64,000 bases of DNA from an uncultured Candidatus Saccharibacteria bacterium. GTDB taxonomy: Bacteria > Patescibacteriota > Minisyncoccia > Phycocordibacterales > UBA5272. Where the stretch lies: contig CAYWEW010000003.1 in the NCBI GenBank assembly GCA_964457775.1, positions 30,776 to 94,775 on the forward strand, in the 5' to 3' direction. The translations under genes were made by a program, and so were the position numbers. Positions within the stretch are counted from its first letter, which is position 1, and each line of letters starts with the position of its first letter. Below are positions 4,464 through 56,126 of this stretch, piece by piece. Below the pieces are notes generated by a model. The model ran no database searches, was not told where the DNA came from, and worked only from the letters and a program-made list of their open reading frames with translations.

Positions 4464-6041
4464 CTAAAGAACTTTGTTTGCGTGATCCGCAAGGCGTGAA
4501 CGTTCACCTTTTAGCAATGTTATATGACCACTATGTCTCCAATCTTTAAAACGATCAACGAGGTGTGCTAGGCCTGAAGACCCTTCAGTGATGTAAGGGG
4601 TATCAATTTGCGCGAGGTTACCCAGACAAACAATTTTTGTTCCTGGTCCGGCACGAGTAATAAGTGCCTTCATTAACTTCGGTGTAAGATTCTGAGCCTC
4701 GTCAATAATTAGAAACTTATTGAGAAAAGTTCTTCCGCGCATAAAGCCCATAGACTTTATTTTTATACGACTGCGCACTAGGTCCATTGTTGCTGCCTTA
4801 CCCCAGTCACCGCCGTATTTAACCCCGTCACCTTTTTCTGTGCATTGGTTACCACTATTAAGTACATCAAGATTATCTTCAAGCGCACCCATCCACGGAG
4901 TCATTTTTTCTTCCTCTGTTCCAGGAAGAAAACCAATTTCTTCTCCAAGTGGAACTGTTACGCGGGTAATAATTATTTCTGAATAACGTTTTGTTTCAAG
5001 AGTTTTAGTGAGTGCAGCAGCAAGTGCTAGTAATGTTTTTCCAGTACCTGCTTGGCCAAGAAGGGTAACAATGTCAACGTCTTCGTCGAGTAAAAGATTG
5101 AGTGCAAAGTTTTGTTCACGGTTACGAGCAACTATTCCCCACACTGCACTTTTTTGATGAGTGTAGTCATTTGCTGTTCGTAGTGTGACAAAGCGAGGCT
5201 CCTTCTTTATAACTTGCGCTTCGAATTTTTCCCCACCAACTGAATAAACAAATTCATTAGGTTGTAGGGATTGAATTAAATGACCAGATACTTCGTATAT
5301 AGAATTTTTCCCTTCTTTTTTTACTTCAGGACTTTTGGGTTGATTGTTCCAGAAATCATCAGGAAGTTCTTGCATGCCTTGATACAGCATATCAGCATCT
5401 TCTATTACCAGGTCATTGCGATAATCCTCGACCTCTATTCTTAGCATTCGTGCCTTGATACGCATAATGGTATCTTTGGAAACAAGAACAACTTTGTACC
5501 TGCCTTTGTACTTCGTGACTAAATGGCTTACAACAGCAAGAATTCTGTCGTCACCATTCTTAGCAGTGTCTTCCGCAGGTACATCTTCAGTTTGTAGAAA
5601 CAAAGAGCCTGTAGCAATGCCACCAGAAGCTTCAAATAATGGTATGCCATCGTAGATATTAATTGTCGAATCAGTGGAAAGAATTTCCTCTAACGTTCGA
5701 GATATTTGACGAGAATTTCTATTTTTTTCTTCATGACCTTTTTTGTTGTCATCAAGCTCCCGAACTGTTTGCATTGGGAAATAAACATGATGTTCTTGGA
5801 ATCTGTATACACAAGTTGGGTCATGCATAGGTACGTTGGTATCAAGTACATACATGCACAACTCAGTAGGCACATTAAGAACTTTTTGCTTTCTTTGTGT
5901 TTTTTGCACGAAGGGTATTTGGGGCTTTTTACTGCTACCAAAATTTTTGGCAGCAATATCAGTTTGTTTGCTAAGCTGTGCCCTCCTACCACTCCTTGCA
6001 CCACCCACAGAACTGATTGGTTTACCTTTTGGACTTGCCAT
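4464..6041 (-). CDS. PhoH-like ATPase with N-terminal PIN domain (YlaK-like)
   Basis: PIN signature LVLDTNVPMHD; Walker A GQAGTGKT; PhoH box IDEAQNLTP...GNLAQIDTPYI; SD AAGGGAG upstream. Confidence 0.85.
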   Translation of the reverse strand: MASPKGKPISSVGGARSGRRAQLSKQTDIAAKNFGSSKKPQIPFVQKTQRKQKVLNVPTELCMYVLDTNVPMHDPTCVYRFQEHHVYFPMQTVRELDDNKKGHEEKNRNSRQISRTLEEILSTDSTINIYDGIPLFEASGGIATGSLFLQTEDVPAEDTAKNGDDRILAVVSHLVTKYKGRYKVVLVSKDTIMRIKARMLRIEVEDYRNDLVIEDADMLYQGMQELPDDFWNNQPKSPEVKKEGKNSIYEVSGHLIQSLQPNEFVYSVGGEKFEAQVIKKEPRFVTLRTANDYTHQKSAVWGIVARNREQNFALNLLLDEDVDIVTLLGQAGTGKTLLALAAALTKTLETKRYSEIIITRVTVPLGEEIGFLPGTEEEKMTPWMGALEDNLDVLNSGNQCTEKGDGVKYGGDWGKAATMDLVRSRIKIKSMGFMRGRTFLNKFLIIDEAQNLTPKLMKALITRAGPGTKIVCLGNLAQIDTPYITEGSSGLAHLVDRFKDWRHSGHITLLKGERSRLADHANKVL

Positions 6042-9396: not shown

Positions 9397-9505
9397 TAAA
9401 ATACATGCCTTTAAAACAAAATGAAAATAAGGGGTGGCCAAGGAGCGAAGAGCGACGATGGGTTCCGCAGCTAGCAAGCGAAGGAACAACGAGATAAAAT
9501 AATTT

Positions 9506-10765
9506 ATGCCTAACAAAATAAACGAAAACAAAATATGGGACGTAGTCGTTATAGGTGGCGGTCCTGCGGGTATGATGGCAGCTGGCCGCGCTGGTGCGAA
9601 AGGAAAGAAAGTTTTACTTCTTGAAAAGAATACTGTTTTAGGTAAAAAACTTCTCATTACAGGAGGGGGTCGTTGTAATATTACAAACAACAAAGCAACT
9701 ACACGTGACATGCTTGCAAAATATAAAGGTAATGATCAATTCTTATTTTCTGCGTTTTCACAATTTGACGTACCAACAACACTTTCATTTTTCAAAGATA
9801 AAGGTTGTCCAACTAAAGTAGAAAATGAAGGAAGAATGTTTCCAGTGTCAGACAAAGCTCAATCAGTTTACGATGTTCTGTATGAATATATGAGAGAGGG
9901 TAAAGTTGAAATTAGAAAAAGTAGTATAGTTGGCGGTCTAAAAGTTGCGAAAGGTGGTGAAGGAGTAATTATTAGTACAAAAAGTGGAAATGATATTCAT
10001 GCAAGGTCTTGTATATTAGCAACAGGTGGAACATCGCGTCCAGAAACTGGCTCAACAGGTGAGGGTTTCGCCTGGCTCAAAAAGCTAGGTCACACTATTA
10101 TCGAGAATGATGCAGCCCTTGTTCCTGTTGCGTTAACGGATACATGGATAAAAAAGTTAAGTGGGAATACTTTGGATGATATTAAATTAACTACATTTCA
10201 AAATAATCAAAAACAAGAAAGCTATAAAGGTAAATTATTGTTCACACATTTTGGCATTAGTGGTCCAACTGTGCTTAATATGAGTAAAGATATAGGTGAG
10301 TTGCTCAAATATGGAGAGGTGGATATAGTTATCGATTTATTTCCATCTATTGATAATGGAACACTTAAGTCACGATTACAATCTGTTCTCGTAGAAGATA
10401 GTAATAAAAAATTAAAGAATGTTCTCTCAAGAATTATACCGTCATTTTTGGTTTCCACAATTCTCTCTCTTTCAGAGATTGACGGACAGACATTTAATCA
10501 TAGTGTGAGTAGTGAGGACAGGGTGAAGTTAGTGAAGCAGATGAAAGAAATTAAACTTCACGTGAAAGGTTTACTCGGAAAAGAAAAAGCAATCGTAAGC
10601 TCAGGGGGGGTTACTCTTACTGAAGTTGATATGAAGACAATGGAGTCAAAAATTGTAAAAGGACTTTATATTGTTGGAGATGTTTTAAATATTGATAGAC
10701 CTTCAGGTGGCTACAGTCTTCAACTTTGCTGGACTACAGGGTGGGTAGCTGGTCAAGCCGTGTAG
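9506..10765 (+). CDS. FAD-dependent oxidoreductase, HI0933/BaiN-like
   Basis: N-terminal dinucleotide fold DVVVIGGGPAGMMAA and LLITGGGRCN motif. Confidence 0.8.
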   Translation: MPNKINENKIWDVVVIGGGPAGMMAAGRAGAKGKKVLLLEKNTVLGKKLLITGGGRCNITNNKATTRDMLAKYKGNDQFLFSAFSQFDVPTTLSFFKDKGCPTKVENEGRMFPVSDKAQSVYDVLYEYMREGKVEIRKSSIVGGLKVAKGGEGVIISTKSGNDIHARSCILATGGTSRPETGSTGEGFAWLKKLGHTIIENDAALVPVALTDTWIKKLSGNTLDDIKLTTFQNNQKQESYKGKLLFTHFGISGPTVLNMSKDIGELLKYGEVDIVIDLFPSIDNGTLKSRLQSVLVEDSNKKLKNVLSRIIPSFLVSTILSLSEIDGQTFNHSVSSEDRVKLVKQMKEIKLHVKGLLGKEKAIVSSGGVTLTEVDMKTMESKIVKGLYIVGDVLNIDRPSGGYSLQLCWTTGWVAGQAV

Positions 10766-11202: not shown

Positions 11203-11409
11203 TTATCTGCATTCTAGAAATCTTCCACGATGAATATGGCCAGTTATTCCATCTTCAAGTTCAATGCAAAGATTGGAACCAGAAATATCTTTTACTTTGT
11301 ATCTACCTCCAATTTCTACTTGATATTCCCGTGCTGTGTACCCCGTTGGTAGTTCAATCAAAGTGACAAATTCTCCAACTAAGCTGCGGATATTATTAAA
11401 CATCGTCAT
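11203..11409 (-). CDS. hypothetical small protein (68 aa)
   Basis: ORF 14 nt upstream of the preceding gene; no motifs. Confidence 0.35.
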   Translation of the reverse strand: MTMFNNIRSLVGEFVTLIELPTGYTAREYQVEIGGRYKVKDISGSNLCIELEDGITGHIHRGRFLECR

Positions 11410-11482
11410 TCCTTTTTGAAAAGAACTATTCGAAATCTACCATTTTAGGAATATTTGTCAAAGAAGATATGAATTTTAAAAT

Positions 11483-15299: not shown

Positions 15300-15770
15300 T
15301 TGAGAAACAAATTTATGGAATATTTAACATTAGAAAAGAAAAATGAATTAGAAAATGAGCTTTTACAGCTCAAAAGTGTTCGTCGTAAGGAAATTGCAGA
15401 TTCTCTTGAATATGCAAAGTCTCTTGGTGATTTGTCAGAAAATGCTGAATATCATCAAGCTCGTGAAGACCAAGCTAATTGTGAGGATCGTATTTCTCAT
15501 ATTGAGCAAATTCTTAAGAATGCAGTTATTATGGAAACAGGTGTTAGTGGTGTTGTAAGTGTTGGTTCAACGGTTACAGTGTTAAAAAAAGGAAGTAAGG
15601 AAGAAAAGACTTTTGCTCTTGTTGGTAGTGAAGAAGCAGATTCTGTTTCTGGTAAAATTTCAAATGAGTCTCCGCTAGGGCAAGCATTACTTGGAAAGAA
15701 AAAAGGCGACAAAGTAATTGTTCACGCACCAAAAGGAGAAGTAGAATATTCAATTGTATCAACTGTTTAG
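15300..15770 (+). CDS. greA: transcription elongation factor GreA
   Basis: GreA N-terminal coiled coil LGDLSENAEYHxAREDQ and C-terminal FKBP-like domain. Confidence 0.9.
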   Translation: MRNKFMEYLTLEKKNELENELLQLKSVRRKEIADSLEYAKSLGDLSENAEYHQAREDQANCEDRISHIEQILKNAVIMETGVSGVVSVGSTVTVLKKGSKEEKTFALVGSEEADSVSGKISNESPLGQALLGKKKGDKVIVHAPKGEVEYSIVSTV

Positions 15771-15832
15771 TTCGTAGTTACTGGTTACTAGTTGGTGGTA
15801 AATACAAAAGCGACAACAAAGTTGTCGCTTTT
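15731..15832 (+). repeat. direct repeat copy 1 (greA 3' end + terminator)
   Basis: 81 nt identical to 17902-17982, plus a ~20-nt diverged extension. Confidence 0.85.
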
Positions 15833-15834
15833 TG
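15808..15834 (+). terminator. greA intrinsic terminator (agcgacaac-aaa-gttgtcgct + T5)
   Basis: Perfect 9-bp stem followed by a T-run. Confidence 0.7.
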
Positions 15835-15899
15835 TGTTTAGTTTTATTGAATAAGTTTTCCCAAGGATAATGTTACACTGTATGTGTAGTATATAATTA

Positions 15900-17840
15900 T
15901 TGTTTTATATTCTACTTAAATATATAACAAGTGTGTATTCTCAAATTTACATAATTCAGCGTCTCCTAAATATAGCTCTGCCTTTTTTTGCTCTAATATT
16001 GCTTGTTGCAATCATTTTTTTTATTTATAAACTTTTTACGACAACAGATGAAGTTCGGGCTATAAATATGAGACGGATGACATTTAGTATAGTATCCATA
16101 TTTCTTGTCGTTATTCTTTGGGTTGTAGTTACTTTTTTAGGTTCTTCTACATATTTATTTAATAATTTTACCCACCTCTTTAAGGCATCTATATCTAATG
16201 ATTTGCATGCAAATCCAAATTTAGGGGGTGGGCCACTTGTTGTTTCCTTGACTGCGCCGGATGAGGTTATGAGAAAAATGGAAAATTGTACATATAGTAT
16301 TGGTTGGTTCGGGTCAAGTGGTAATGGTCTTTCCGTTGATTGGGGAGATGGAAAATCTGAGCCTAATCCAAATTCAAATGAAGGTAATAATGGTAAAAGT
16401 TGTACAGAGGTAGTAAAGAAACATATATATACTGCACCTGGAAAGTATACGATTAAAGTCACTAGTTGGCATCCTGGTCCAACTGATGGCGCTGTTATAG
16501 ATTGGATAGGAAAAACAAATGTGGAAGTAACTGTAAAAGATAATATTACATCCTCCATTGAGATTTTATCTCCTTCAGATGGAGAAACTTATTTTTATCA
16601 AAGTGATCCAGTGATTACTTGGAAGGTTATTGCTGGGAAGAAACTTTCACTTGTTAGTGAATTATTAGATAAAAATGATAATGTAATTGTTTCTGAAAAA
16701 AAAGATAACATTGCATTTAGTGGCGAAGGTAGTACTAGGTTTATATTAAGAGGTAGAACATACGATAATTTTTTAAAAAATGGTGATATCGAGACTACGA
16801 CAAGAGTTCGTCTTTTTGATAATAATACTATTGTTGCAGAAAACAGAAGTAAAGTTTTTACTTTATCAGCAAGGCATGTCGACTCAATAAATGAAAAACT
16901 TATAATATCTTCTGTTTCCAGCACTAGTCCATTTAGCGTAAAGGCATCATTTTCTTATTTTAATGCAATATGTGTCTCAAGCGTACTTGATTGGGGGGAT
17001 GGGTCACCTTTAGTAGAAAATATTAAACAAGTTCAAAAATCATGCCCACTAGATGATGAAACTAAAACATTTGAACATGTGTATCAAAAAATAGGTAAAT
17101 ACAAGATTATTTTAAAAACAAACGAATTTGATTTTGATGATGTTAAATTAGTCGTCCCTTATTATTCTAAGACAATTGAAGTTTCAGATGGGGGCATAAT
17201 AATTCCAAAGGATAAAACAGTTCCAGAAGTAGAAGTAGTGATTCCTGTTGTGGTGCCAAGTATTAGTATTAAATATGTATATCCAGATTACCTTAAGTTG
17301 AGTTATGAGAATTTATCAGAGTCAACAGCTGAGCTAATTAGTGAAAAAACAGGAAAAGTCGTGCATAGTATTGGTGTTATTAAGGATATGAGTGGTTCAC
17401 AACGAGTATATTTAAAGTCTATATCTGCTTTAGGAAAAAATTTAGAAAATGGGTATTATTATGTGCGTACCGTATCTAATTCAACATTAAAGCAAGAGGT
17501 TGTTCGTAGTGATCGCTTTTATTTTCAGCCTAATATTAATAATCCAGCAACCTTCATGTACCCTCTAAAGGATATAATTATAAAAAAAGGAGAACCATTA
17601 AAAGTTGATTATAAAATTAATCAAAATGAACTGGACGGTGATCCACTTTCTATCACAATTAGTATTGTTGGTGATAATTCTGTGATTGGGGGAGGGTACG
17701 GTGAAAAAGCAGTAATTGGGGAACATTCTCATGAATGGATTATTGATGAGGTTGGTATATATCGTCCTTACATAAATGTACGGTTTAGAGAAATTTCATA
17801 TACATTTCCTGGAGCGCTTATTACTGTGGTTGGTAATTAA
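15900..17840 (+). CDS. membrane-anchored surface protein with two PKD-like domains
   Basis: VDWGDG...KHIYTAPGKYTIKV and LDWGDG...HVYQKIGKYKI match the PKD consensus WDFGDG..HxYxxxGxYxV. N-terminal hydrophobic segments. ORF-track start is TTG; ATG at 16068 (MRRMTF...) is a likely true start. Confidence 0.6.
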   Translation: MFYILLKYITSVYSQIYIIQRLLNIALPFFALILLVAIIFFIYKLFTTTDEVRAINMRRMTFSIVSIFLVVILWVVVTFLGSSTYLFNNFTHLFKASISNDLHANPNLGGGPLVVSLTAPDEVMRKMENCTYSIGWFGSSGNGLSVDWGDGKSEPNPNSNEGNNGKSCTEVVKKHIYTAPGKYTIKVTSWHPGPTDGAVIDWIGKTNVEVTVKDNITSSIEILSPSDGETYFYQSDPVITWKVIAGKKLSLVSELLDKNDNVIVSEKKDNIAFSGEGSTRFILRGRTYDNFLKNGDIETTTRVRLFDNNTIVAENRSKVFTLSARHVDSINEKLIISSVSSTSPFSVKASFSYFNAICVSSVLDWGDGSPLVENIKQVQKSCPLDDETKTFEHVYQKIGKYKIILKTNEFDFDDVKLVVPYYSKTIEVSDGGIIIPKDKTVPEVEVVIPVVVPSISIKYVYPDYLKLSYENLSESTAELISEKTGKVVHSIGVIKDMSGSQRVYLKSISALGKNLENGYYYVRTVSNSTLKQEVVRSDRFYFQPNINNPATFMYPLKDIIIKKGEPLKVDYKINQNELDGDPLSITISIVGDNSVIGGGYGEKAVIGEHSHEWIIDEVGIYRPYINVRFREISYTFPGALITVVGN

Positions 17841-17880
17841 TTGTGTAGTTTTTATATAGTAACATAGACTGTATATTCAA

Positions 17881-17983
17881 GAAAAGGTGAAGTTGAAGAT
17901 ACAATTGTATCAACTGTTTAGTTCGTAGTTACTGGTTACTAGTTGGTGGTAAATACAAAAGCGACAACAAAGTTGTCGCTTTT
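17881..17983 (+). repeat. direct repeat copy 2 (degenerate greA tail ...KGEVEDTIVSTV* + terminator hairpin)
   Basis: Matches 15731-15832. Confidence 0.85.
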
Positions 17984-18080
17984 GTATTTTATATTTTAGT
18001 CGACTTAGTAATTGGTATCTGGTATTATTAATTGATATTAGTATGTATTAACTACTAACCAGTAACTATAAACTACCCAT

Positions 18081-19538
18081 ATGGCCTCCATCGAAGAACT
18101 TCGCACAGAAAGAATTAAAAAATTAGAGAAATTAAAAGCTCTTGGAATTTCTTCATATCCGAGTTCATCTTCTCGTACTCATGAATTAAAATATGTGGCG
18201 GATAATTTTACTTCACTTGAAAGTCATCAAGATTCAATTATTGTAAATGGCCGTGTTATGTCATCACGTGGACAAGGAGCTATTTGTTTCGTTGATTTGT
18301 ATGACGGAACAAATAGAATGCAAGTTGTTATTAAGTTACCAGAATCAACTGAAGAAGTGATGAATTTTTATCGTGACTACGTAGATATAGGAGACTTTGT
18401 AGAAGTAACTGGAAAAGTTTTTATTACAAAATCAGGTCAGCAAAGTATTCTTGTTAATAAAGTTTCCATGCTATCAAAAGCATTACTTCCACTTCCAGAT
18501 AAATTCCACGGACTTCAGGATGAAGAACTTCGTATGCGTGAAAGATATCTAGATATACTTACGAATCCTGAACTTAGGGAGTTATTAGAAAAGAAGACAA
18601 AATTTTGGGAGGTGACACGCTCATTCTTAAAAGAAAAGGGGTTCTTAGAAGTTGAAACACCAACTCTTGAAGTAACTACAGGAGGTGCAGAGGCTAGACC
18701 ATTTGCTACACATCATTATGATTTTGATTTGCCAGTATTTATGCGTATATCAGTTGGAGAACTTTGGCAGAAGAGATTAATGGCCTCTGGTATCCCGAAG
18801 ACTTTTGAAATAGGCCGTGTATATCGTAATGAAGGTTCATCGCCAGATCATCTCCAGGAATTCACTAACTGTGAATTTTATATGTCATATGCAAATTATG
18901 AAGATGGAATGAAGTTAACTCAAGAACTATATCGCAAATTAGCAGAAGATGTATTCGGTACGACAACATTTACAACACGTGGACACACATTTAATCTTGC
19001 TGATGAATGGACTAAAATTGACTATAGTGAAGAAATAAAACGTCAGACATCTATTGATATAAATACTGCAACCGATGATGAAATAAAAAACAAATTACAA
19101 GATTTGAAAGTGAAGTATGACGGTGTTAATCGTGAGCGATTAATTGATACACTTTGGAAGTATTGTCGTAAGAATATTACTGGTCCATCTTTTGTAATTA
19201 ATCATCCAATAATTATTGCTCCACTTGCAAAGAAGAATACTGATGGTAAAACTGTACAAATGTTCCAACCAGTTATCGCAGGAAGTGAAATTGGACGTGG
19301 CTACTCAGAACTTAATGACCCACTTGATCAAAGAGAGAGATTCGAAGTACAGCAGAAGTTATTAGCTGGAGGGGACGAAGAGGCGATGATGGCAGATTGG
19401 GAATTTGTGGATATGTTAGAACATGGTATGCCCCCTACATGTGGATTTGGTTTTGGCGAAAGATTGTTCGCATTTTTGGCAGATAAACCAGTTCGTGAAG
19501 TACAGACATTCCCACTTACAAGACCAAAAATAATTTAG
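18081..19538 (+). CDS. lysS: lysyl-tRNA synthetase, class II
   Basis: OB anticodon-binding domain plus class II motifs 1-3 (FxEVETP, RNEG, GxGxGxER). Confidence 0.95.
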   Translation: MASIEELRTERIKKLEKLKALGISSYPSSSSRTHELKYVADNFTSLESHQDSIIVNGRVMSSRGQGAICFVDLYDGTNRMQVVIKLPESTEEVMNFYRDYVDIGDFVEVTGKVFITKSGQQSILVNKVSMLSKALLPLPDKFHGLQDEELRMRERYLDILTNPELRELLEKKTKFWEVTRSFLKEKGFLEVETPTLEVTTGGAEARPFATHHYDFDLPVFMRISVGELWQKRLMASGIPKTFEIGRVYRNEGSSPDHLQEFTNCEFYMSYANYEDGMKLTQELYRKLAEDVFGTTTFTTRGHTFNLADEWTKIDYSEEIKRQTSIDINTATDDEIKNKLQDLKVKYDGVNRERLIDTLWKYCRKNITGPSFVINHPIIIAPLAKKNTDGKTVQMFQPVIAGSEIGRGYSELNDPLDQRERFEVQQKLLAGGDEEAMMADWEFVDMLEHGMPPTCGFGFGERLFAFLADKPVREVQTFPLTRPKII

Positions 19539-26431: not shown

Positions 26432-26989
26432 ATGAAAGACGAACAAGAACTATCACAATTTTTCGCAGAGAATAAACGTATGCCAACGTACGAAGAGATG
26501 AAAAGTATCTTCGGAGTTGCTTCTAAGAATACCGTTGCATACAGAGTGAATAAATTATTAGAAAGTGGTTTCCTTACTAAATCAGGTAATAAACTATTGC
26601 TTACTGAAAGTGGCTATGTAATGCGACTAGGAACAGTACAAGCTGGATTCCCGACAGCCGCTGAAGAAGATATATCGTCTGAATTATTATCACTTGATGA
26701 TTTTTTGGTTGAAAAAAAGAGCTCAACTTATATGTTAGAAGTAATGGGTGAATCGATGAAAGACGCAGGAATACTAGAAGGAGATCTTGTTTTAGTGGAA
26801 AGGGGAAGAACGCCACGGCGTGGAGATATAGTTCTTGCTCTTGTCGATAACGAATATACACTTAAATATTTGGATTCCGAAAATGGTAGACCAATACTTG
26901 TTCCTGCAAATAGAGCTTTTAAAAAAATATATCCGCAAAATTTAAAAATAGAAGCAGTGCTTAAAGCGGTAATTAGAAAATATAGATAA
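26432..26989 (+). CDS. lexA: LexA repressor (S24 peptidase)
   Basis: N-terminal wHTH, AG cleavage region (TVQAGFP), S24 motifs GESM...K. Confidence 0.9.
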   Translation: MKDEQELSQFFAENKRMPTYEEMKSIFGVASKNTVAYRVNKLLESGFLTKSGNKLLLTESGYVMRLGTVQAGFPTAAEEDISSELLSLDDFLVEKKSSTYMLEVMGESMKDAGILEGDLVLVERGRTPRRGDIVLALVDNEYTLKYLDSENGRPILVPANRAFKKIYPQNLKIEAVLKAVIRKYR

Positions 26990-27171
26990 TAACAAATATA
27001 TGAAAATTTTAAACATATCAATCGAAATAGTTCATAATCCTAAAAATATTGAATCAACATATCTCAGTCGCAGAAGTGACTTTGTTAGAATTTTAAATAC
27101 AGTATCAGAATTTTAAAATGCATTTTATATTTATTTCAAACTTCCTAGCGAGTAACTAATAACTTTTATTC

Positions 27172-27606
27172 ATGACTATCTCCACCAAACAAGCCATCAT
27201 AAGTATCACAACATCTGGGAAAAATTTTTCTCAAATAAATTATAGTCGTCGTATGTATGCAATAATTAGACGTTATACACCAAATGTTGTTGAAGGCAAC
27301 ACAAATGAATGTTTTGCTGACCTTACAGGACTTAGAACCTTTCTTAAGATGAGTTATAAAGAAATGGCACATAATATTGTTACAGATATAAAAAAAGAGA
27401 TTGGAATTTTTTGTGCTATCCACGTTGTAACACAAGATACTTTTTTGATGGCAAAAAACAGAGCAAAGAAATCAAGAAACATTTCTACATATAAAGAAAT
27501 GAATAAGCTTTTTGCTGGAACATTATTCACTACACGCAGAAGTCAAAAGAATTTAGGATCAAAAAAAGTAAGGTTAACCATTCCTTTTTTAGGCAAAGTT
27601 GTGTAA
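27172..27606 (+). pseudogene. truncated Y-family DNA polymerase (DinB/UmuC/ImuB-like) N-terminal fragment
   Basis: NECFADLTG (cf. SIDEAFLDLTG) and EIGIFCAIHVVTQDTFLMAKNRAKKS (cf. GLTCSIGIAPNKLLAKIAS); lacks the first catalytic Asp motif and everything beyond ~140 aa. Confidence 0.45.
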
Positions 27607-28916: not shown

Positions 28917-28962
28917 ACGATGCATTAATAATTCTAAAACTATTAACTAGTAACTATTAACT

Positions 28963-30060
28963 ATGAGTTTATCTATCGGAATTGTTGGACTTCCAAACGT
29001 CGGCAAGTCAACATTATTTAATGCAATAACAAATAAATCAGTTCCAGCTGATAATTATCCTTTTTGTACTATTGATCCATCAGTAGGAGTTGTTCCTGTG
29101 CCTGATGAGAGACTCGCAGTGTTATCAAAAATTTCTGGTTCTAGAAAATTAATTCCTGCCATTGTAGAATTCGTAGATATTGCAGGACTTGTAAAGGGGG
29201 CATCAGCTGGTGAAGGGCTTGGTAATGCATTTCTTTCACATATTCGGGAGACGGATGCAATTGCAGAAGTTGTGCGTATCTATGAGAATAGTGATTTGAT
29301 ACACGTAGAAGGAACTGTTGACCCACTTCGTGATATTGAGATTATCAATATGGAATTAATTCTTGCTGATATGCAAACAGTTGAGAAGCGTAGTCAAACC
29401 ATTGGGCGCGATGTGAAGCGTGGTGATAAAGATGCGATTAAGCTCGCTGGACTACTTGAAGTATTAAAGAAAAATTTGGAGGAAGAAAAACTAGCGAATA
29501 CTATTTCTTTTGATACTGAAGAGACCAAACTCGTACGTGACTTGCATCTGATTACTATGAAGCCATTTCTTTATGTTTTGAATAAGCAATCTGGTGGAAA
29601 AAATCTAGACGAAATGAACGATGAGAGGTTCACTAAGTTAATAAATTATTTCAAAGAAAATAATTTTAAATATGTAATAGTTGATGCCAAGATAGAAGAT
29701 GAACTCAAAGAATTCGAAGGTGAGGAAAAAGAAATGATGCGTAACGAAATGAATGCACATGACAGTGGTGTAGATGGCCTAATCAAAGCTGGATATGACT
29801 TGCTCGGACTCGAGACATATCTTACAACTGGTGAAATGGAAACACGCGCATGGACAATTAAGAAAGGAAGCACGGCACCACGTGCGGCAGCTGCGATACA
29901 CTCAGATTTTGAAACAAAGTTTATTCGTGCGGAAGTTGTTGCATATGATGACTTAGTCAAAGCCGGAAATTATGGAGATGCAAAGGCTCGGGGAGTATTA
30001 AGAACAGAAGGTAAGGAATATATAGTGAAAGATGGGGATGTCATTGAATTTAAGATTTAA
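28963..30060 (+). CDS. ychF: ribosome-binding ATPase YchF/Ola1
   Basis: GIVGLPNVGKST, NKxD-like LNKQS, C-terminal TGS domain. Confidence 0.95.
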   Translation: MSLSIGIVGLPNVGKSTLFNAITNKSVPADNYPFCTIDPSVGVVPVPDERLAVLSKISGSRKLIPAIVEFVDIAGLVKGASAGEGLGNAFLSHIRETDAIAEVVRIYENSDLIHVEGTVDPLRDIEIINMELILADMQTVEKRSQTIGRDVKRGDKDAIKLAGLLEVLKKNLEEEKLANTISFDTEETKLVRDLHLITMKPFLYVLNKQSGGKNLDEMNDERFTKLINYFKENNFKYVIVDAKIEDELKEFEGEEKEMMRNEMNAHDSGVDGLIKAGYDLLGLETYLTTGEMETRAWTIKKGSTAPRAAAAIHSDFETKFIRAEVVAYDDLVKAGNYGDAKARGVLRTEGKEYIVKDGDVIEFKI

Positions 30061-32517: not shown

Positions 32518-33804
32518 ATGAAGAACCTACCTCAACAACTAAAGGGCATAGCAATAGGAACCATTTTCTTTATTGGTCTATTATATGTAAGTGCATGGAC
32601 TGGAGCTCCAACAGGAACACCACCAGCAAACAACGTAGATGCCCCTGTAAATGTTAGTATTAACTCGCAATATAAAGATGGAGCATTAGGTGTTGGAGGT
32701 TTGATTCGTGGTTATGCAGACGCAATATTTGATGGAGGTGTAAAAATAGGAACAACAACAGACGTTTGTAGTTCAGCATTAGGTGGAACATTGCGCTATA
32801 ACAGCAGTGCTAGATGTGTAGAATTTTGTGATGAGTCATCATGGAAATGTACAAATCAGACAGCTACACCACCAACATGTACTTCGTTTACTTATTCCAG
32901 CTGGTCCCCGTCAGTTTGTGTTAATGGTACACAAACAAGAACTGTAACAACTTCATTACCATCTGGCTGTGTTGGAGGAACGTCATCAACAAGTCAAAGC
33001 TGTACCGTCCCAGATTTTTCTTATACTGCAACTATTTCTGACACACCAAATTATAATTTAAGAGATGTTGTTTTGGCTGCTGGATGGGATGGATCTAAAA
33101 AAGTGGTTGCAACTATTACTATAAACGGTGACGTATATTCAACTTCAAATGCTATTCCTGCCTTCGATACTGGAGATCTACCTGCAGGTTCAAGTGTTAC
33201 AATTATAAATAATGGTAATATTATCGGTAAGGGTGGTAATGGTGGAGTAGGGTATGGATCAAGTTTATGGGCAGGCTTTGGATACGCCTATACAGTTGGT
33301 ACCCCAGGTGAAGATGGTGGTCCAGCACTAAAAGTAAGAGCTATTACAGTTATTAGGAATTATGGTGTTATAGCAGGAGGAGGAGGAGGTGGTGGTGGTG
33401 GTGGATACGCATATAATAATTATTATTATCAGAACTATGGTAGTGCTGGTGGCGGTGGAGGTGGTGGTGGACAGGGATACAACGCAGGTAGTGCTGGTGG
33501 TGGTGGTATTTTAAGTGGATACAGTTCAGCGAGTGGTAATTCTGGTAGCTCTGGAACATTTAGTTCTGCTGGATTGGGTGCTACAGCTGTAAATTCTTCT
33601 AATTCACAAGGAGACGGTGCAGCTGTATATGGAAGTGCTGGAGGAAATGGTGGAACACTTGGCAATCCAGGACAAGTAGGAGGTAGTGGATCTGCTCAGT
33701 ATGCTAGTGGTGGATATCCTGGAGGACTGGCAGGGAATTCAGTTATAGGTAATTCATATGTATCTTGGGAAGTTGTTGGAACTAGATTGGGTCCTGTTAA
33801 TTAA
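32518..33804 (+). CDS. N-terminally anchored Gly-rich extracellular protein (cassette A, paralog of 41344..42315)
   Basis: Hydrophobic anchor then AWTGAPTGTPPANNVDAPVNV...IGTTT, Cys-rich middle, (G)n/GGxGG C-terminus. Confidence 0.6.
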   Translation: MKNLPQQLKGIAIGTIFFIGLLYVSAWTGAPTGTPPANNVDAPVNVSINSQYKDGALGVGGLIRGYADAIFDGGVKIGTTTDVCSSALGGTLRYNSSARCVEFCDESSWKCTNQTATPPTCTSFTYSSWSPSVCVNGTQTRTVTTSLPSGCVGGTSSTSQSCTVPDFSYTATISDTPNYNLRDVVLAAGWDGSKKVVATITINGDVYSTSNAIPAFDTGDLPAGSSVTIINNGNIIGKGGNGGVGYGSSLWAGFGYAYTVGTPGEDGGPALKVRAITVIRNYGVIAGGGGGGGGGGYAYNNYYYQNYGSAGGGGGGGGQGYNAGSAGGGGILSGYSSASGNSGSSGTFSSAGLGATAVNSSNSQGDGAAVYGSAGGNGGTLGNPGQVGGSGSAQYASGGYPGGLAGNSVIGNSYVSWEVVGTRLGPVN

Positions 33805-33840
33805 ATTTATGAATTTTTTTTACTTTAAACTATATATTAT

Positions 33841-34437
33841 ATGTTAGGTTATCCAATAAAAACAATCCTCGTATCTATTCTTATTTTTATGTTAGGAGTT
33901 GTTTCTAGTGTTTTTTTAACTATTTTATATTTCAAGATTAGTGGAAAAAATCCGGAAATGAATTATGCAAATACTAATACAAATAGTGTAAATGTAGACA
34001 CAAATAAACCTATTGTTAAAAATGAAGAAACAAAGCAGAATTTTGAGATGAATTATATAGTTGGAGAAATAATTTCTTTAAGTGGAAATAAATTAAACAT
34101 TAAAATTAATCCAGTATTAAATCCTATTTTTAAAGATAAAGGGGAAAGTGTTGTGGAGGTAACAGTAACAGATATGACCAAATTTGTGTCTATGGTACAA
34201 AAAGACGCGACAATTTTTAAAAAGGAGTTACTAGATTTTCAAAAAATACCCATTGCAAATAGAGATTTTTCTATGTCACCTCAACCCTTCTTAGAAAAGG
34301 AAACATCTCGCGACTTGTTTACTATAGGTAAAATGGTTGTAGTAAAATCAAAGGAAAAAATATCTAGTTCTACCACATCAATAAAAGCAGAATCAGTTGG
34401 TATAGCACCAGAGATACCTAAAGCTACATCACGATAA
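33841..34437 (+). CDS. membrane-anchored beta-rich partner protein (cassette A, paralog of 42350..42934)
   Basis: N-terminal TM; shared blocks with paralog (Y(I/F)VG(E/D)..S.SG, ..KD...F.KE...(F/Y).(K/N)IPI..R). Confidence 0.55.
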   Translation: MLGYPIKTILVSILIFMLGVVSSVFLTILYFKISGKNPEMNYANTNTNSVNVDTNKPIVKNEETKQNFEMNYIVGEIISLSGNKLNIKINPVLNPIFKDKGESVVEVTVTDMTKFVSMVQKDATIFKKELLDFQKIPIANRDFSMSPQPFLEKETSRDLFTIGKMVVVKSKEKISSSTTSIKAESVGIAPEIPKATSR

Positions 34438-40837: not shown

Positions 40838-41245
40838 ATGGCTACAGAAACAAAACAGAGATACATAGAAGCAGTAGGACGTCGTAAGACAGCGATTGCT
40901 CGTGTTCGTATTACACCTGCAACAAAGACTTCTTTCGTTGTTAACGATAAGGATGTTAAGGAATATTTCGTAACAGAAGAACTTCAAATGATTGCTCAAG
41001 AAGCGATTAGTAAATCAGAAGTTGGTGAAAAGTTCTCAGTATCTATTCACGTATTAGGTGGTGGTATTCATGCACAAGCAGAAGCTGTACGTCATGGACT
41101 ATCTCGTACGCTCGTTCTTCGTGATGAAAACATCAAGAACACTCTTAAGAAACTTGGATTTCTAAAGCGTGACTCACGTCAAGTTGAAAGAAAGAAATTC
41201 GGTCTTAAGAAAGCACGTAAAGCTCCAACTTGGTCAAAGCGTTAA
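40838..41245 (+). CDS. rpsI: 30S ribosomal protein S9
   Basis: C-terminal ...GLKKARKAPTWSKR. Confidence 0.9.
   Translation: MATETKQRYIEAVGRRKTAIARVRITPATKTSFVVNDKDVKEYFVTEELQMIAQEAISKSEVGEKFSVSIHVLGGGIHAQAEAVRHGLSRTLVLRDENIKNTLKKLGFLKRDSRQVERKKFGLKKARKAPTWSKR
41219..41245 (+). repeat. direct repeat copy 1 (rpsI last 9 codons incl. stop)
   Basis: aaagctccaacttggtcaaagcgttaa; 26/27 identical to 42965-42991. Confidence 0.8.
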
Positions 41246-41252
41246 TAATAAT

Positions 41253-41281
41253 AAACTGCACATATGTGCAGTTTATTTTTT
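41253..41281 (+). terminator. rpsI intrinsic terminator (ctgcacat/atgtgcag palindrome + T-run)
   Basis: Perfect 8-bp palindromic stem followed by tttattttt. Confidence 0.65.
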
Positions 41282-41343
41282 CAAGTAAGTCAAATGTGGA
41301 TAAGTTACATAATGGGTATCAGTTTTGTGTTACAGTGTCCTAT

Positions 41344-42315
41344 ATGAACAGTGGATCAACAATAAATACAAGAACTCAAGATTCTTTCACTAAGGCATCT
41401 TTGATAATGATATTATCTATAATACTTGGTACTGTAACTTATGCATGGGTAGGTCCAACAAGTATGGCTCCTAACGGAAATGTACCTCCACCGATTAATG
41501 TTGGTTCAGTTCTGCAAGAAAAGTTGGGAGGACTTAAAATATTTGGTGACTTAACTGTTGGAACGACAACTAGTCCAAATGCAACTTTAACTGTCCATGG
41601 GAAAATATATTCTGAATCTACATTAAGTTCTGATACTGCACATACAGTTGTCACTAAGGATTTTATCCCAAGGTGTTCTTCAGGTAAGTTCTTAACAAGT
41701 GATGGGAATCAGCTGTTGTGCAAAACAGCCACAGTTCCTCCTTCCTGCGGAACAGAGTCAAATGTTGGTCCAAACACAGTTGTTACGTTTACATCTTCAT
41801 GTGTGTTCGTTGTTCCTGACGGAGTTAATTCTGTTAATTTGAAAGTGGTTGGAGGTGGAGGTGGAGGTGGAGGAGGGTCTGATTTTGGTGGTGCTAGTAG
41901 TGGGGGACAGAGTGGAACACAGTCATCGTTCTCAACAGTTGTAGCTTTACCTGGTGGTGGTGGAGGTGGAGCAGGGATGCTTCAATATAATTACGTGTGT
42001 TATGGAGGCGCAGCAGGTGCTGGATACCCTTCTGGAACAGAAGGGGTAACTTGTGGATATGGATCGGTTACTGGCGCTTCCAATGGTTCTGGATACGGTT
42101 CAGGTGGGGATGGTAAAACCTCTGCTATTGATGGTGGTGGAGGAGGAGGTAGTGGTGGTGCTGGACAAGTTGTTACACAGACATTAAGTGTCACTTCAGG
42201 TCAAAACATATCTGTTGTAGTTGGGGGTGGAGGATCACGAGGATCTAGTACATATGGTAATGTTGGTACTTCTGGTACAAACGGTGTTGTTACTGCTACT
42301 TATACTACACCATAA
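41344..42315 (+). CDS. N-terminally anchored Gly-rich extracellular protein (cassette B)
   Basis: AWVGPTSMAPNGNVPPPINV...VGTTT N-terminus parallels cassette A; poly-Gly blocks; start at ATG 41344 (ORF-track 41230 overlaps rpsI). Confidence 0.6.
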   Translation: MNSGSTINTRTQDSFTKASLIMILSIILGTVTYAWVGPTSMAPNGNVPPPINVGSVLQEKLGGLKIFGDLTVGTTTSPNATLTVHGKIYSESTLSSDTAHTVVTKDFIPRCSSGKFLTSDGNQLLCKTATVPPSCGTESNVGPNTVVTFTSSCVFVVPDGVNSVNLKVVGGGGGGGGGSDFGGASSGGQSGTQSSFSTVVALPGGGGGGAGMLQYNYVCYGGAAGAGYPSGTEGVTCGYGSVTGASNGSGYGSGGDGKTSAIDGGGGGGSGGAGQVVTQTLSVTSGQNISVVVGGGGSRGSSTYGNVGTSGTNGVVTATYTTP

Positions 42316-42349
42316 TCCAAAATATAATGGAAAAGTTCTTCTAAAATTT

Positions 42350-42934
42350 ATGAGTCCGAATTTAAAAAATATTATTATATATATTCTCATCTTAATTATA
42401 GGAGTTTTTATTGGTGGTTACTCAGTGAATTTATATTTCAAGACCAAAATTCAGAAAATATTTATGAGTAATGTTACTTCTAGCGAATCAGTAAATAATG
42501 ATGTATTTGATAACAATGCTCAAGCATCTAACTCAAAAATTTTAAAAACAAAGTATTTTGTTGGAGATGTTGTTTCTTTTTCTGGTGATACAATTATTAT
42601 AGACTCTGAAAATATATTGTATCCGTTGTCCGTTTCTAAAGAAAAGCACCAAGTAACCGTCAAAATAGATAATAATACAAAATTTATTAGTACCACCTTA
42701 AAAGATAAGGCAATTTTTGAAAAGGAAATGCGTGATTATAAAAATATTCCAATTGACAAAAGAGCGCAGATTACATCACCAAAATCTTTAATTGAAAAAG
42801 AAATACCTCGTAATTCAATTAGTGTTGGTAAAAAAATAGTCATTAAATCAAAAGAAGAGTTAGTTTCTACTACTAAATATTTTGTAGCTGAATCGATTAG
42901 TTTAACTTATGAATTGTCTAAAGCCACAAATTAA
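42350..42934 (+). CDS. membrane-anchored beta-rich partner protein (cassette B)
   Basis: Paralog of 33841..34437; start at ATG 42350 (MSPNLKN...). Confidence 0.55.
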   Translation: MSPNLKNIIIYILILIIGVFIGGYSVNLYFKTKIQKIFMSNVTSSESVNNDVFDNNAQASNSKILKTKYFVGDVVSFSGDTIIIDSENILYPLSVSKEKHQVTVKIDNNTKFISTTLKDKAIFEKEMRDYKNIPIDKRAQITSPKSLIEKEIPRNSISVGKKIVIKSKEELVSTTKYFVAESISLTYELSKATN

Positions 42935-42964
42935 ATACCGGGGACTCTTTTAAGGAAACCTCTT

Positions 42965-42991
42965 AAAGCTCCAACCTGGTCAAAGCGTTAA
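42965..42991 (+). repeat. direct repeat copy 2 (rpsI 3' end duplicate)
   Basis: aaagctccaacctggtcaaagcgttaa followed by its own hairpin terminator. Confidence 0.8.
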
Positions 42992-42995
42992 AAAC

Positions 42996-43022
42996 AAAAA
43001 CCTGTCATTTGACAGGTTTTTT
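42996..43022. terminator. intrinsic terminator (cctgtca-ttt-tgacagg flanked by A5/T6)
   Basis: Hairpin with flanking A/T runs on both strands. Confidence 0.6.
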
Positions 43023-43044
43023 GTTTTTAGAATTACATATTTGT

Positions 43045-43506
43045 ATGCTAAAATTAATTCATATGAATAATCTAGAAAAAAATACACCACAAAATAATGA
43101 ACCAGAGAATCCAGGGAGAAGAGGTTTTCTTGGGAAGATGTTCGGAGCTGCTGCACTTGGAACAGTTGCTGCTATGGCTGGAAATAAATATATTAAACAA
43201 GAGCTCGAGAATAATAATGAAATTAATAATCTATACTTATCTTTTAAAGATAAAGAAAATGATATTCACAAAGTAAACGAAGCTACTGCTTTATTAATAG
43301 AAGAAATGAATAAAAGCAGTATTGACCAGGTAAAAATTTCAGGAATGGGTCATCCAAATGATCGTATAGATATTTTGAGGGACTTTTTAACCAAACACCT
43401 TAATTCCAAAATTGGAAATAAATATTCATTTAAGAATAGAATATTTTCATCTGGTGTTTATAAAAGAGAGGACTTAATTGATATTTTGAGCGCCACAACA
43501 AAGTAG
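43045..43506 (+). CDS. hypothetical secreted protein with twin-arginine (Tat) signal
   Basis: PGRRGFLGKMFGAAALGTVAAMAG = S/T-RRxFLK-type Tat signal; start 43045 or 43063 (ORF-track TTG 43009 lies inside the terminator). Confidence 0.5.
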   Translation: MLKLIHMNNLEKNTPQNNEPENPGRRGFLGKMFGAAALGTVAAMAGNKYIKQELENNNEINNLYLSFKDKENDIHKVNEATALLIEEMNKSSIDQVKISGMGHPNDRIDILRDFLTKHLNSKIGNKYSFKNRIFSSGVYKREDLIDILSATTK

Positions 43507-43581
43507 TTTTGTAATTTTAAATTAGCCGTGTTAGTGTAGTTTTAGAGGTTTCAATTAGTTGTCTAATTTGTGGAGGAAAAA

Positions 43582-43836
43582 ATGAATACACGTGAAATAA
43601 TTGTAAATCTTGATGAAGACTCAGTAAAGAGAATCGGAATACTTTTTGGAGATGATGTTACGACAATGGAGGGTGCTGAAGATTTTTTTAAACTAGCGAT
43701 GGTAACCCTTTTATCAATGGGTGAAGAGATGAAAAAGGGGAGAATAATTGTTTCTATGAACCCAAACGCGGTTGGTGGTTTTACAGGATTGAAATTTGAT
43801 TTCCCAAAGCCAAAACCAATATGCAGAGTCAAATAG
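43582..43836 (+). CDS. hypothetical small protein (84 aa), SD-bearing
   Basis: GGAGGA SD 43572-43577, 4 nt before ATG. Confidence 0.45.
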   Translation: MNTREIIVNLDEDSVKRIGILFGDDVTTMEGAEDFFKLAMVTLLSMGEEMKKGRIIVSMNPNAVGGFTGLKFDFPKPKPICRVK

Positions 43837-43846
43837 ATTTTAAATC

Positions 43847-43878
43847 AAACAGCACTTAGGTGCTGTTTTTGTTTTTTT
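43847..43878 (+). terminator. intrinsic terminator (acagcac-ttag-gtgctgt + T-run)
   Basis: Hairpin followed by a T-run. Confidence 0.6.
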
Positions 43879-43939
43879 ACTTAATTATGCTAGTGTTCTT
43901 GTAGAAATACTGCACATTCATATTTAAAGGAGAAACAAA

Positions 43940-44743
43940 GTGCTTGGATATCTTCTTGAAAAAAGACCACAAGAAATTTATAGACTTGAGTTAAATGAAA
44001 ATGGTTTTGTTTTTAAAATTCGAAATGCATTTTTTGAGTACTTACTCAATTGTATTAAAAAAGAGGAAGACAAAATTCATTTAATAAAACTTGCAAATGA
44101 TGTAGTTGAAGGCGTAGTCATTTTCTACATAAATTTGCCATTTATCAGATATCCAAATTTTTCACACAAATCAACAGATTGGAAGAGTTTGTGCAAATGT
44201 GCAGAAGATATGAGTTTTCTATTTCGTCTGCTTAATTATCCACCAACAGACTTGGATTTGGTAGGTAATCACTCATACTGTTTAAGTGAAAAGACACAGC
44301 TCATGACTATTTCTACTAGTCATTATAGTAATGACGGTTTTCACTCTTCTCCGATTGAAGTTGGGTTTAGTAGAAAGGCTTGTGAACTTCTTGTTACTTC
44401 ATTTAAACAGGATACACACTTTAAAGAATGTGAGGAGTCTGCGCATAGTGTGTACTTTGGTTTATCCTCCAAAACAAAAAGTGAATTTGAGAGAAGTAAA
44501 AAGACTTTCCTAAAATATTCCGGAGGATTCATGGGGATAACTGCCATGGTAAGAGGCGGAGGCACTCCACACTTCGTTGTTCCAGGAAACTGTGCTTGTT
44601 TGGGTGCAAATCCAGATAGGTTCAAGTTTGATAGGGATACGCATTCTCACAACATGGATTCTTCATTACAACAGATGAGTATGCTCGCATCTTTGGTTAC
44701 GTTCTGGAATAAGGTTCTAATTCCATTACAGGACGGAAGCTAA
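43940..44743 (+). CDS. hypothetical Cys/His-rich protein (267 aa), SD-bearing, GTG start
   Basis: AAGGAGAAACAAA then GTG; no recognised family. Confidence 0.5.
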   Translation: MLGYLLEKRPQEIYRLELNENGFVFKIRNAFFEYLLNCIKKEEDKIHLIKLANDVVEGVVIFYINLPFIRYPNFSHKSTDWKSLCKCAEDMSFLFRLLNYPPTDLDLVGNHSYCLSEKTQLMTISTSHYSNDGFHSSPIEVGFSRKACELLVTSFKQDTHFKECEESAHSVYFGLSSKTKSEFERSKKTFLKYSGGFMGITAMVRGGGTPHFVVPGNCACLGANPDRFKFDRDTHSHNMDSSLQQMSMLASLVTFWNKVLIPLQDGS

Positions 44744-56030: not shown

Positions 56031-56126
56031 CTAGTATCTGTAATAATTTTGTCTATTCAAATATTTTAAAAAATCACTAATAATTATCAACTAGTAACCA
56101 GTAACTATTAACTATATACTAGTTGT

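Follow-up and report, generated by a model that had tools for sequence, protein, structure and literature searches.

A surface-protein gene between duplicated greA tails in a Patescibacterium, with sister cases at other conserved genes

A cassette between two copies of the greA 3′ end

In a 64-kb stretch of contig CAYWEW010000003.1 from an uncultured Candidatus Saccharibacteria bacterium (hereafter the window, whose coordinates are used unless a related locus or contig compared with it, such as L097 or L120, is named), the conserved genes greA and lysS are separated by a cassette that holds one gene, for a predicted surface protein with PKD-like repeats, and the 3′ end of greA recurs on the far side of that cassette as part of a long direct repeat (Table 1). 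The two repeat copies agree at 105 of 115 positions (self-BLAST of the window, E = 2e-41) and share an uninterrupted identical run of 82 nt (15751-15832 = 17902-17983), one nucleotide more than the 81/81 identity given in an initial annotation of this DNA, whose 16 matches in the preceding 20 nt we likewise recovered (mismatches at 15737, 15743, 15747 and 15750). Every one of the ten mismatches lies near one end or the other of the repeat, an arrangement for which random placement gives P = 1e-5 (a clean run of at least 81 nt), and the flanks of the identical core are 80% identical on one side and about 60% on the other. Within the window, the only long repeats of this tail-duplication kind are the greA pair and a second pair at rpsI.

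The final codons of the intact greA gene lie inside copy 1 of the repeat; in copy 2, the corresponding pseudo-tail of 12 codons (17883-17921) reads KGEVEDTIVSTV* and has no in-frame start codon upstream. Intrinsic terminators are predicted at the hairpins of both copies (15806-15832 and 17951-17989), the stem in copy 2 being longer, at 18 pairs, because sequence identity stops within the 3′ arm of the copy 1 stem. The insert's GC content (0.32-0.33) falls inside the range of the window. As for terminal inverted repeats, the insert has only a weak 23-nt imperfect inverted match near its ends. A transposon or insertion sequence was rejected as the source, with no transposase present, a duplication of ~100 nt against the short target duplication (<15 bp) expected of such elements, and only this weak inverted match.

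The sole open reading frame (ORF) between the repeat copies (15900-17840 from TTG, or 15933-17840 in the public record) encodes a protein with two N-terminal hydrophobic or transmembrane (TM) segments, which give a weak match of the type IV secretion system pilin kind, and with two PKD-like repeats; two WGDG...H.Y...GKY motifs are visible. This agrees with the initial description of a single membrane-anchored gene with two PKD-like domains and no recombinase, the Pfam PKD score of 22.3 bits lying just under the cut-off of 23.5. Eight homologues were found, all distant, among the PKD and peptidoglycan-binding proteins of other Patescibacteria (P0002-P0008 are annotated PF00801/PF18911); the best is 44% identical, and the homologues sit in unrelated chromosomal neighborhoods.

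The uninterrupted site in relatives

Relatives retain the site in its uninterrupted form. We retrieved 80 related species via LysS, with upstream DNA present in 76, and in 76/76 of these informative species greA stands directly before lysS, mostly 15-250 nt away. Much closer relatives, at 96% (L097, L098, L099) and 93% (L100) LysS identity to the window, all show greA, a 157-nt spacer and lysS, with a single copy of the greA tail, of the heptad-repeat box A that follows it, and of the terminator. The question posed by the initial annotation, whether greA runs straight into lysS with one copy of the repeat in related genomes, can thus be answered in the affirmative.

Against the empty sites of L098, L100 and L097, the last with a greA 94.7% identical to that of the window at the DNA level, the window is collinear along copy 1 from greA to the T-tract of the terminator, and collinear again from copy 2 onward as far as lysS. 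No tblastn match to the PKD protein was found in the 80 related loci. The PKD cassette is a genuine lineage-specific insertion at the greA 3′ boundary. Other enlarged greA-lysS gaps in relatives contain no pseudo-tail.

Box A and the terminator are only ~65% identical between the window and a relative with 96% LysS identity. A recombination breakpoint within greA itself, which would leave a donor-derived 3′ part, was looked for: mismatch density between the window and L097 climbs in the last 100 nt of the gene, yet L097 and L100 show the same gradient when compared with each other, and the signal is therefore uninformative. The gradient in the corresponding comparison at rpsI is equally uninformative.

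Table 1. Features of the greA-lysS insertion and of the second tail duplication in the window
Feature	Position	Strand	Remarks
greA, intact	15315..15770	+	Pfam GreA_GreB_N + GreA_GreB; last 12 codons inside repeat copy 1
Repeat copy 1	15731..15845	+	greA tail, stop codon, heptad box A (15768-15793), terminator hairpin (15806-15832)
Insert-specific DNA, 2,049 nt	15833..17881	+	From alignment to the empty sites of L097, L098 and L100; in no relative
Promoter-like 5′ element of the cassette	15846..15877	+	TTGAAT..N..GGATAATGTTACA; shared only with the rpsI cassette (41298-41309)
Cargo gene, 635 aa	15933..17840	+	Public-record call; 646 aa if the TTG at 15900 is used
Repeat copy 2	17882..17996	+	Pseudo-tail, box A (17919-17944), full-length terminator (17951-17989)
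lysS promoter-like site	18000..18028	+	TCGACT-17-TATTAT; conserved in relatives
Box A′	18050..18075	+	Box A in reverse complement, right next to the lysS start codon; complements copy 2 box A
lysS	18081..19538	+	Ancestral immediate neighbor of greA
rpsI live tail	41209..41258	+	Second case in the window (gene 40838-41245); followed by a terminator of the type native after rpsI in L109
Cargo of the rpsI insertion	41344..42934	+	Gly-rich secreted protein (41344-42315); small TM protein (42350-42934)
rpsI pseudo-tail	42955..43004	+	..KAPTWSKR*; 84% identical to 41209-41258; followed by a different terminator, of the L120 rpsI type

What the duplication preserves

The spacer between greA and lysS follows a common plan in relatives, in which the greA stop codon is succeeded by heptad box A, the terminator, a promoter-like TCGACT-17-TATTAT site, box A′ and lysS. 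RNAalifold failed to align the heptad boxes, and complementarity was therefore tested species by species: the sequences of box A and box A′ vary by species yet remain complementary in 18 of 42 species (z > 4; box A/A′ relatives include L002, L005, L007, L010, L018, L020, L072, L097 and L100). In the terminator, 9 of 10 pairs carry compensatory changes, and the region as a whole folds at -70 kcal/mol (z = -6.5 relative to shuffles). An Rfam search of the repeat and leader returned no family at the gathering threshold, the weak small-RNA look-alikes among its results being driven by the terminator.

In the window, 105 nt separate box A of copy 2 and box A′. With the insertion in place, copy 1 appears to complete and terminate greA, and copy 2 to terminate the new gene and keep the lysS leader intact; an insertion without duplication would have broken a greA-terminator or lysS-leader function. 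Because copy 2 restores the spacing between box A and box A′, this product was tolerated, although the restored spacing does not explain the mechanism by which it arose. Pairing of box A with box A′ could form only on read-through RNA, where it may act as an insulator or as a block to lysS translation. The same heptad repeats (AACTAGT/AACCAGT/AACTATT) are also present at 28927-28963 and 56078-56114, directly 5′ of the start codons of ychF (28963) and scpA (56127), and the 12-mer heptad pattern has 13 matches in the window versus 1.1 expected.

Tail duplications at other conserved genes

The greA case is one of several. We compared the last 45-48 nt of each ORF with its downstream DNA across the window and ~170 related loci (~3,400 ORF ends), using reverse-strand and upstream comparisons as controls, and recovered seven independent tail duplications, well clear of the control level. 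Two are in the window, at greA and at rpsI; two more concern lysS (L024 and L070), a further two rpsI (L127, and L160, which is the same as L169), and one a membrane-protein gene in L157 (the same as L153). The initial annotation had pointed to the same architecture at rpsI and suspected a systematic mechanism. Both suggestions gained support, in that the rpsI tail is duplicated around a two-gene cassette at 40838-43030, and the architecture recurs at rpsI, lysS and another gene in relatives. The inserts measure 0.1-2.1 kb and carry, beyond the PKD gene, a Gly-rich secreted protein with a small membrane protein, a DKNYY protein, an unknown ORF or a HigB/HigA pair, or consist of just ~85 nt. 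The repeats at greA, rpsI, lysS and the remaining gene have no sequence in common. The starting points of the pseudo-tails are nonetheless similar across independent events, lying at about codon -10 of rpsI in three distant lineages and at the motif ..KP(I/L)RE.. of lysS in two.

Two of the affected genes stand in ancestral neighbor pairs, rpsI-grpE and lysS-mraZ, whose spacing among relatives ranges from <100 nt to 5.7 kb, which marks these gaps as hot spots for gene gain. The rpsI-grpE gap of the window also contains genes, at 43063-44743, that have been there longer and have homologues in L104 and L118.

For the small TM protein of the rpsI cassette, no homologue was found. The 5′ ends of the greA and rpsI cassettes are both marked by the motif GGATAA(N)GTTACA (15865-15877, 41298-41309), preceded by TT[GC]AA.TAAGT. 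It occurs twice in the 64 kb versus 0.05 expected, and 0 times in ~2.8 Mb of relatives; it may be a common promoter or regulator site, or a sign of shared origin. The two-gene module at rpsI, in which the Gly-rich secreted protein has weak GP38 / Gly_rich_2 matches and the small membrane protein comes second, has two paralogous copies in the window (32518-34437 and 41344-42934); the membrane proteins of the two copies are 35% identical, and the other copy stands after alaS without tail duplication.

The sister cases in relatives differ in content. In L157, a toxin-antitoxin pair of HigB (Gp49) and HigA (HTH_3) lies between convergent genes (9481-10263, same in L153), and the repeat is a perfect 31 nt from the 3′ end of a gene for a PEGA-domain membrane protein. 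The rpsI tail is repeated ~120 nt downstream with no cargo gene between the copies in L127 (4189-4343) and in L160 (8378-8529, same as L169). On the 3′ side of rpsI in L115 (8495-10440), a TdeIII-type restriction endonuclease and a D12 methyltransferase adjoin the gene, and no tail duplication was detected there.

Pseudo-tails as alleles of other lineages

Across the six coding cases, 19 of the 30 differing codons are synonymous. Under the null of a freely drifting local duplicate, with the live copy changing only synonymously, ~40% would be expected, and the synonymous excess over this in-situ decay is significant (P = 0.008). In L160, the two rpsI tails differ at six positions in 33 nt, 6/6 of them synonymous, and both encode ARRAPQWSKR*. 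Translation of the pseudo-tails as mini-ORFs, which could explain the synonymous bias, was rejected for the two in the window, as neither has an in-frame start codon.

The rpsI pair of the window carries a further signature. Its tails are nearly identical over 28 nt and then run into two quite different terminators, of the L109 type first and the L120 type second; each is native to another lineage, and a foreign tail-plus-terminator module therefore seems to have arrived with the cargo. On these sequence comparisons, the pseudo-tails are best described as alleles from other lineages, and not as decayed local copies. The second greA copy had initially been called a decayed GreA tail with the same terminator; tail and terminator are indeed there, and in place of decay the displaced allele offers the better fit. 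At L024, the diagnostic sites fall 3 left and 2 right, which fits a single crossover without reaching significance.

Search for a recombinase

Neither the insert nor the 64-kb window as a whole was found to encode an integrase, transposase or resolvase, and the same holds for the annotated portions of the source contig (~36-100 kb). This survey drew on public-record gene calls with precomputed Pfam assignments (JACCDT011196272.1, GCA_013565695.1) for ~5,300-25,800 and 30,800-64,000 of the window and beyond, and on our own Pfam scans for the remaining window ORFs of at least 100 aa. Likewise, none of the seven tail-duplication inserts has a recombinase in or near it. Among the variable-gap ORFs of 160 related loci, 92 were Pfam-scanned, and the families listed for them (complete for ~60, the best 25 of 64 families for the rest) include no integrase; the matches are to housekeeping enzymes, restriction-modification genes, ankyrin proteins and similar. 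Viral contigs gave no exact match to the greA core or to S9-tail patterns.

These results divide the initial proposal of site-specific integration at a gene terminus: the 3′-boundary insertion with its empty site stands, and the action of an integrase finds no support, with none in or near any of the 7 inserts. The suggested search for the PKD gene linked to a greA-tail attachment site and a recombinase instead led to PKD homologues in other contexts and to viral contigs without the tails.

Origin of the duplication

Starting from what was observed — an insertion with a matching empty site, a module present in duplicate, no recombinase, sister cases at other genes and pseudo-tails that are alleles — we tentatively favor, well short of confidence, an additive single-crossover recombination via the conserved gene tail, in which the homologous-recombination machinery of the host would have acted on imported DNA that brought a tail copy of its own. 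The incoming DNA would comprise the cassette (a promoter and the PKD-repeat surface-protein gene) together with a greA 3′ end and terminator of its own, originating in this lineage or in a related one. A Campbell-type insertion-duplication crossover with the resident copy, inside the 82-nt identical core, would place the tail/terminator segment on both sides of the insert and leave copy 2 as a displaced, untranslated pseudo-tail. The exchange would be performed by the general homologous-recombination machinery of the cell, with no recombinase in cis, and survivors would be limited to products that leave greA, its terminator and the lysS leader intact.

The order of elements (gene, tail, foreign terminator, cargo, pseudo-tail, resident terminator), the allelic tails and the core/flank pattern at greA point to a single crossover; exchange between two homologues that have diverged leaves just such a core, identical itself and flanked by homologous but diverged sequence. 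The lack of any common repeat sequence, the absence of an integrase at every case and site, and the absence of phage contigs carrying the tails together argue for host homologous recombination. The single-crossover topology, the circular or looped donor and the dependence on RecA are the parts that we infer.

Several points weigh against recombination through the gene tail. The greA tails differ at only 4 sites (2 synonymous, 2 not), with 2 diagnostic sites for each copy, too few to assign the resident copy. The same test applied to ~1,900 ORF starts found no duplicated gene head, and a purely homology-driven process does not predict this contrast with the seven duplicated tails. The shared starting points of the pseudo-tails hint at site specificity, with fuzzy boundaries. 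No donor with the PKD gene adjoining greA was found. A single crossover would require a circular or bridged donor, here purely hypothetical, and competence systems import DNA as single, linear strands. For RecA, 30-100 nt of homology is little, and the enzyme behind the exchange would be candidate host machinery only.

An integrase of the tyrosine or serine type, with an attP that resembles the greA 3′ end, acting in trans or lost as a larger element decayed to a remnant resembling a cis-mobilizable element (CIME), is in our judgment unlikely, though a serious contender. It would account for the attL/attR-like structure at a gene 3′ end (identical core, unrelated or weakly similar arms, gene intact), for the restriction to 3′ ends and for the recurrent starting points of the rpsI and lysS pseudo-tails. 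An element-borne tail would be translated while integrated, and synonymous-biased differences are also expected on this account. The rpsI 3′ end of streptococci is hit by three tyrosine-integrase families, whose direct repeats are long or short, and decayed elements are common (PMC5357655). Against this stand the negative searches described above, which covered the inserts, the window, its annotated flanks, the Pfam families listed for 92 scanned ORFs from the gaps of 160 loci, and viral contigs, and the absence of any intact element at these sites anywhere sampled. To serve the unrelated "att" sequences, at least four in number, four separate specificities of integrase would be needed, none of them seen, and the 82-nt core includes lineage-specific non-coding DNA, far beyond what an integrase needs.

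Insertion with long target duplication in situ — an illegitimate joining that copies ~100 nt of resident target to both sides, by way of a staggered break that is filled in, or of template switching during replication at the terminator hairpin, after which drift and gene conversion or selection left the center identical — strikes us as improbable. It belongs to a documented class, in which duplications of 30-420 bp lack mobility genes, often span a stop codon and occur mostly in naturally competent bacteria (PMC2853133). Both greA copies bear the box A and terminator of this very lineage, the left junction (15832/15833) lies within the extended terminator stem, in its 3′ arm, and the L157 repeat is perfect, all of which would fit. 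An extra conversion or selection step is needed, however, to confine mismatches to the repeat ends; the predominantly synonymous differences in the sister cases speak against local decay, and the rpsI copies of the window, with their different native-type terminators, are not producible by duplication in situ.

An assembly artefact, in which the real chromosome reads greA-lysS and a separate 2,151-bp circle holds the cargo and one repeat, or in which two strains form a chimera, is very improbable: the source is a metagenome assembly, k=31 Logan contigs obtained in further runs on the same population (L182, L183, L094-L096) break exactly at the core, and L182 (2,181 nt) starts and ends with the same 30-mer, which tandem and circle fit equally, but the junctions cargo-end/pseudo-tail, core/cargo-start and core/lysS each appear in independent assemblies of several runs, the integrated order is present on three long contigs, and analogous structures occur in unrelated assemblies. 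Because the diverged 20-nt pseudo-tail is physically joined to the cargo end, a cargo-linked copy of the greA tail is real in either configuration.

Other features

In L072, a ~109-nt AT-rich element occurs just 3′ of both penicillin-binding-protein genes (5210-5316 and 11310-11416), its copies 80% identical. At 26432-27606 of the window, a gene for a LexA-like S24 peptidase precedes a 144-aa piece of a Y-family polymerase (IMS); together they may represent an SOS-type mutagenesis cassette in truncated form.

Relation to known systems

Insertion with long target duplication was reportedly described by Nobusato et al. in 2000. Furuta, Abe and Kobayashi (2010) documented it for restriction-modification genes in Proteobacteria, Helicobacter and similar (PMC2853133). 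The greA locus resembles that class in its small insert (<20 kb), in direct repeats of >30 bp that align to the single-copy empty site of a relative, in the lack of an integrase or transposase, and in a repeat that spans the stop codon and leaves the target gene intact. It differs in its host, a Patescibacterium, and in its cargo, which is a PKD-like surface protein (in the sister cases toxin-antitoxin or secreted proteins) instead of restriction-modification genes. The repeats of the described class, moreover, are near-identical recipient copies, whereas the second copy in the sister cases is mostly the allele of another lineage.

Integrative and conjugative elements (ICEs), integrative and mobilizable elements (IMEs) and genomic islands also enter the 3′ ends of protein genes (rpsI, rpmG, rplL and guaA in streptococci), and decayed or cis-mobilizable remnants of them exist (PMC5357655, PMC5090054). 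They share with the loci described here the attL/attR-like 3′-end duplication, the reconstituted gene, rpsI as a recurrent target and the existence of integrase-less decayed forms. In contrast, they are defined by an adjacent integrase and mobilization genes, of which none was seen here or, among the Pfam families listed, at the same sites in 160 loci.

A third comparison is with Campbell-type insertion-duplication, homology-facilitated illegitimate recombination and transformation-generated merodiploids (PMC3240628, PMC3784515). These likewise involve host recombination with imported DNA that has one homology segment, and leave the insert beside or between the duplicated segment with no dedicated recombinase. 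They come from laboratory constructs or transformation, however, and are not described as recurrent natural gene gain at housekeeping-gene tails, nor in Patescibacteria.

At Rhs and contact-dependent inhibition (CDI) toxin loci with their "orphan" tips, an incoming 3′ end recombines via a conserved segment and the old 3′ end is displaced downstream as an untranslated remnant. This C-terminal displacement resembles the greA case in its conserved-segment recombination and in the untranslated displaced 3′ end that it leaves. The Rhs/CDI process swaps a functional toxin/immunity module and diversifies the gene, whereas the greA insertion leaves the gene product as it was and adds its cargo as a gene of its own.

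The greA case thus belongs to a described kind, an insertion with long target duplication over the stop codon and without mobility genes, and it resembles the att duplications made by integrases. Less familiar are the displaced tails, which are alleles of other lineages, and their recurrence at rpsI, lysS and greA across Patescibacteria.

Implications for gene gain in Patescibacteria

Patescibacteria (Candidate Phyla Radiation, CPR) have tiny genomes, few recognizable mobile elements and fast-changing surface proteins, and how they gain genes is poorly understood. The locus, its empty-site relatives and the six sister cases provide a concrete scar of gene gain that recurs where conserved genes end, at their 3′ boundary, with no recombinase in cis. 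Because the pseudo-tails come from other lineages, they record the transfer itself and could serve as markers for tracing donors. The scar also reveals a constraint on where genes can be added, as the duplication spares both the terminator of greA and the lysS leader with its conserved, lineage-specific box A/A′ pair.

A broader and more speculative proposal, to which we give little credence at present, is that Patescibacteria support a recombinase-free cassette mobility. A small cassette would travel with a portable arm of homology, formed by the final 10-20 codons of a conserved housekeeping gene and its terminator. Host recombination between the tail copies would excise and integrate it, and DNA uptake would spread it between lineages. 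If that were true, the 3′ ends of rpsI, lysS and greA would be general docking sites for surface-protein and defence genes.

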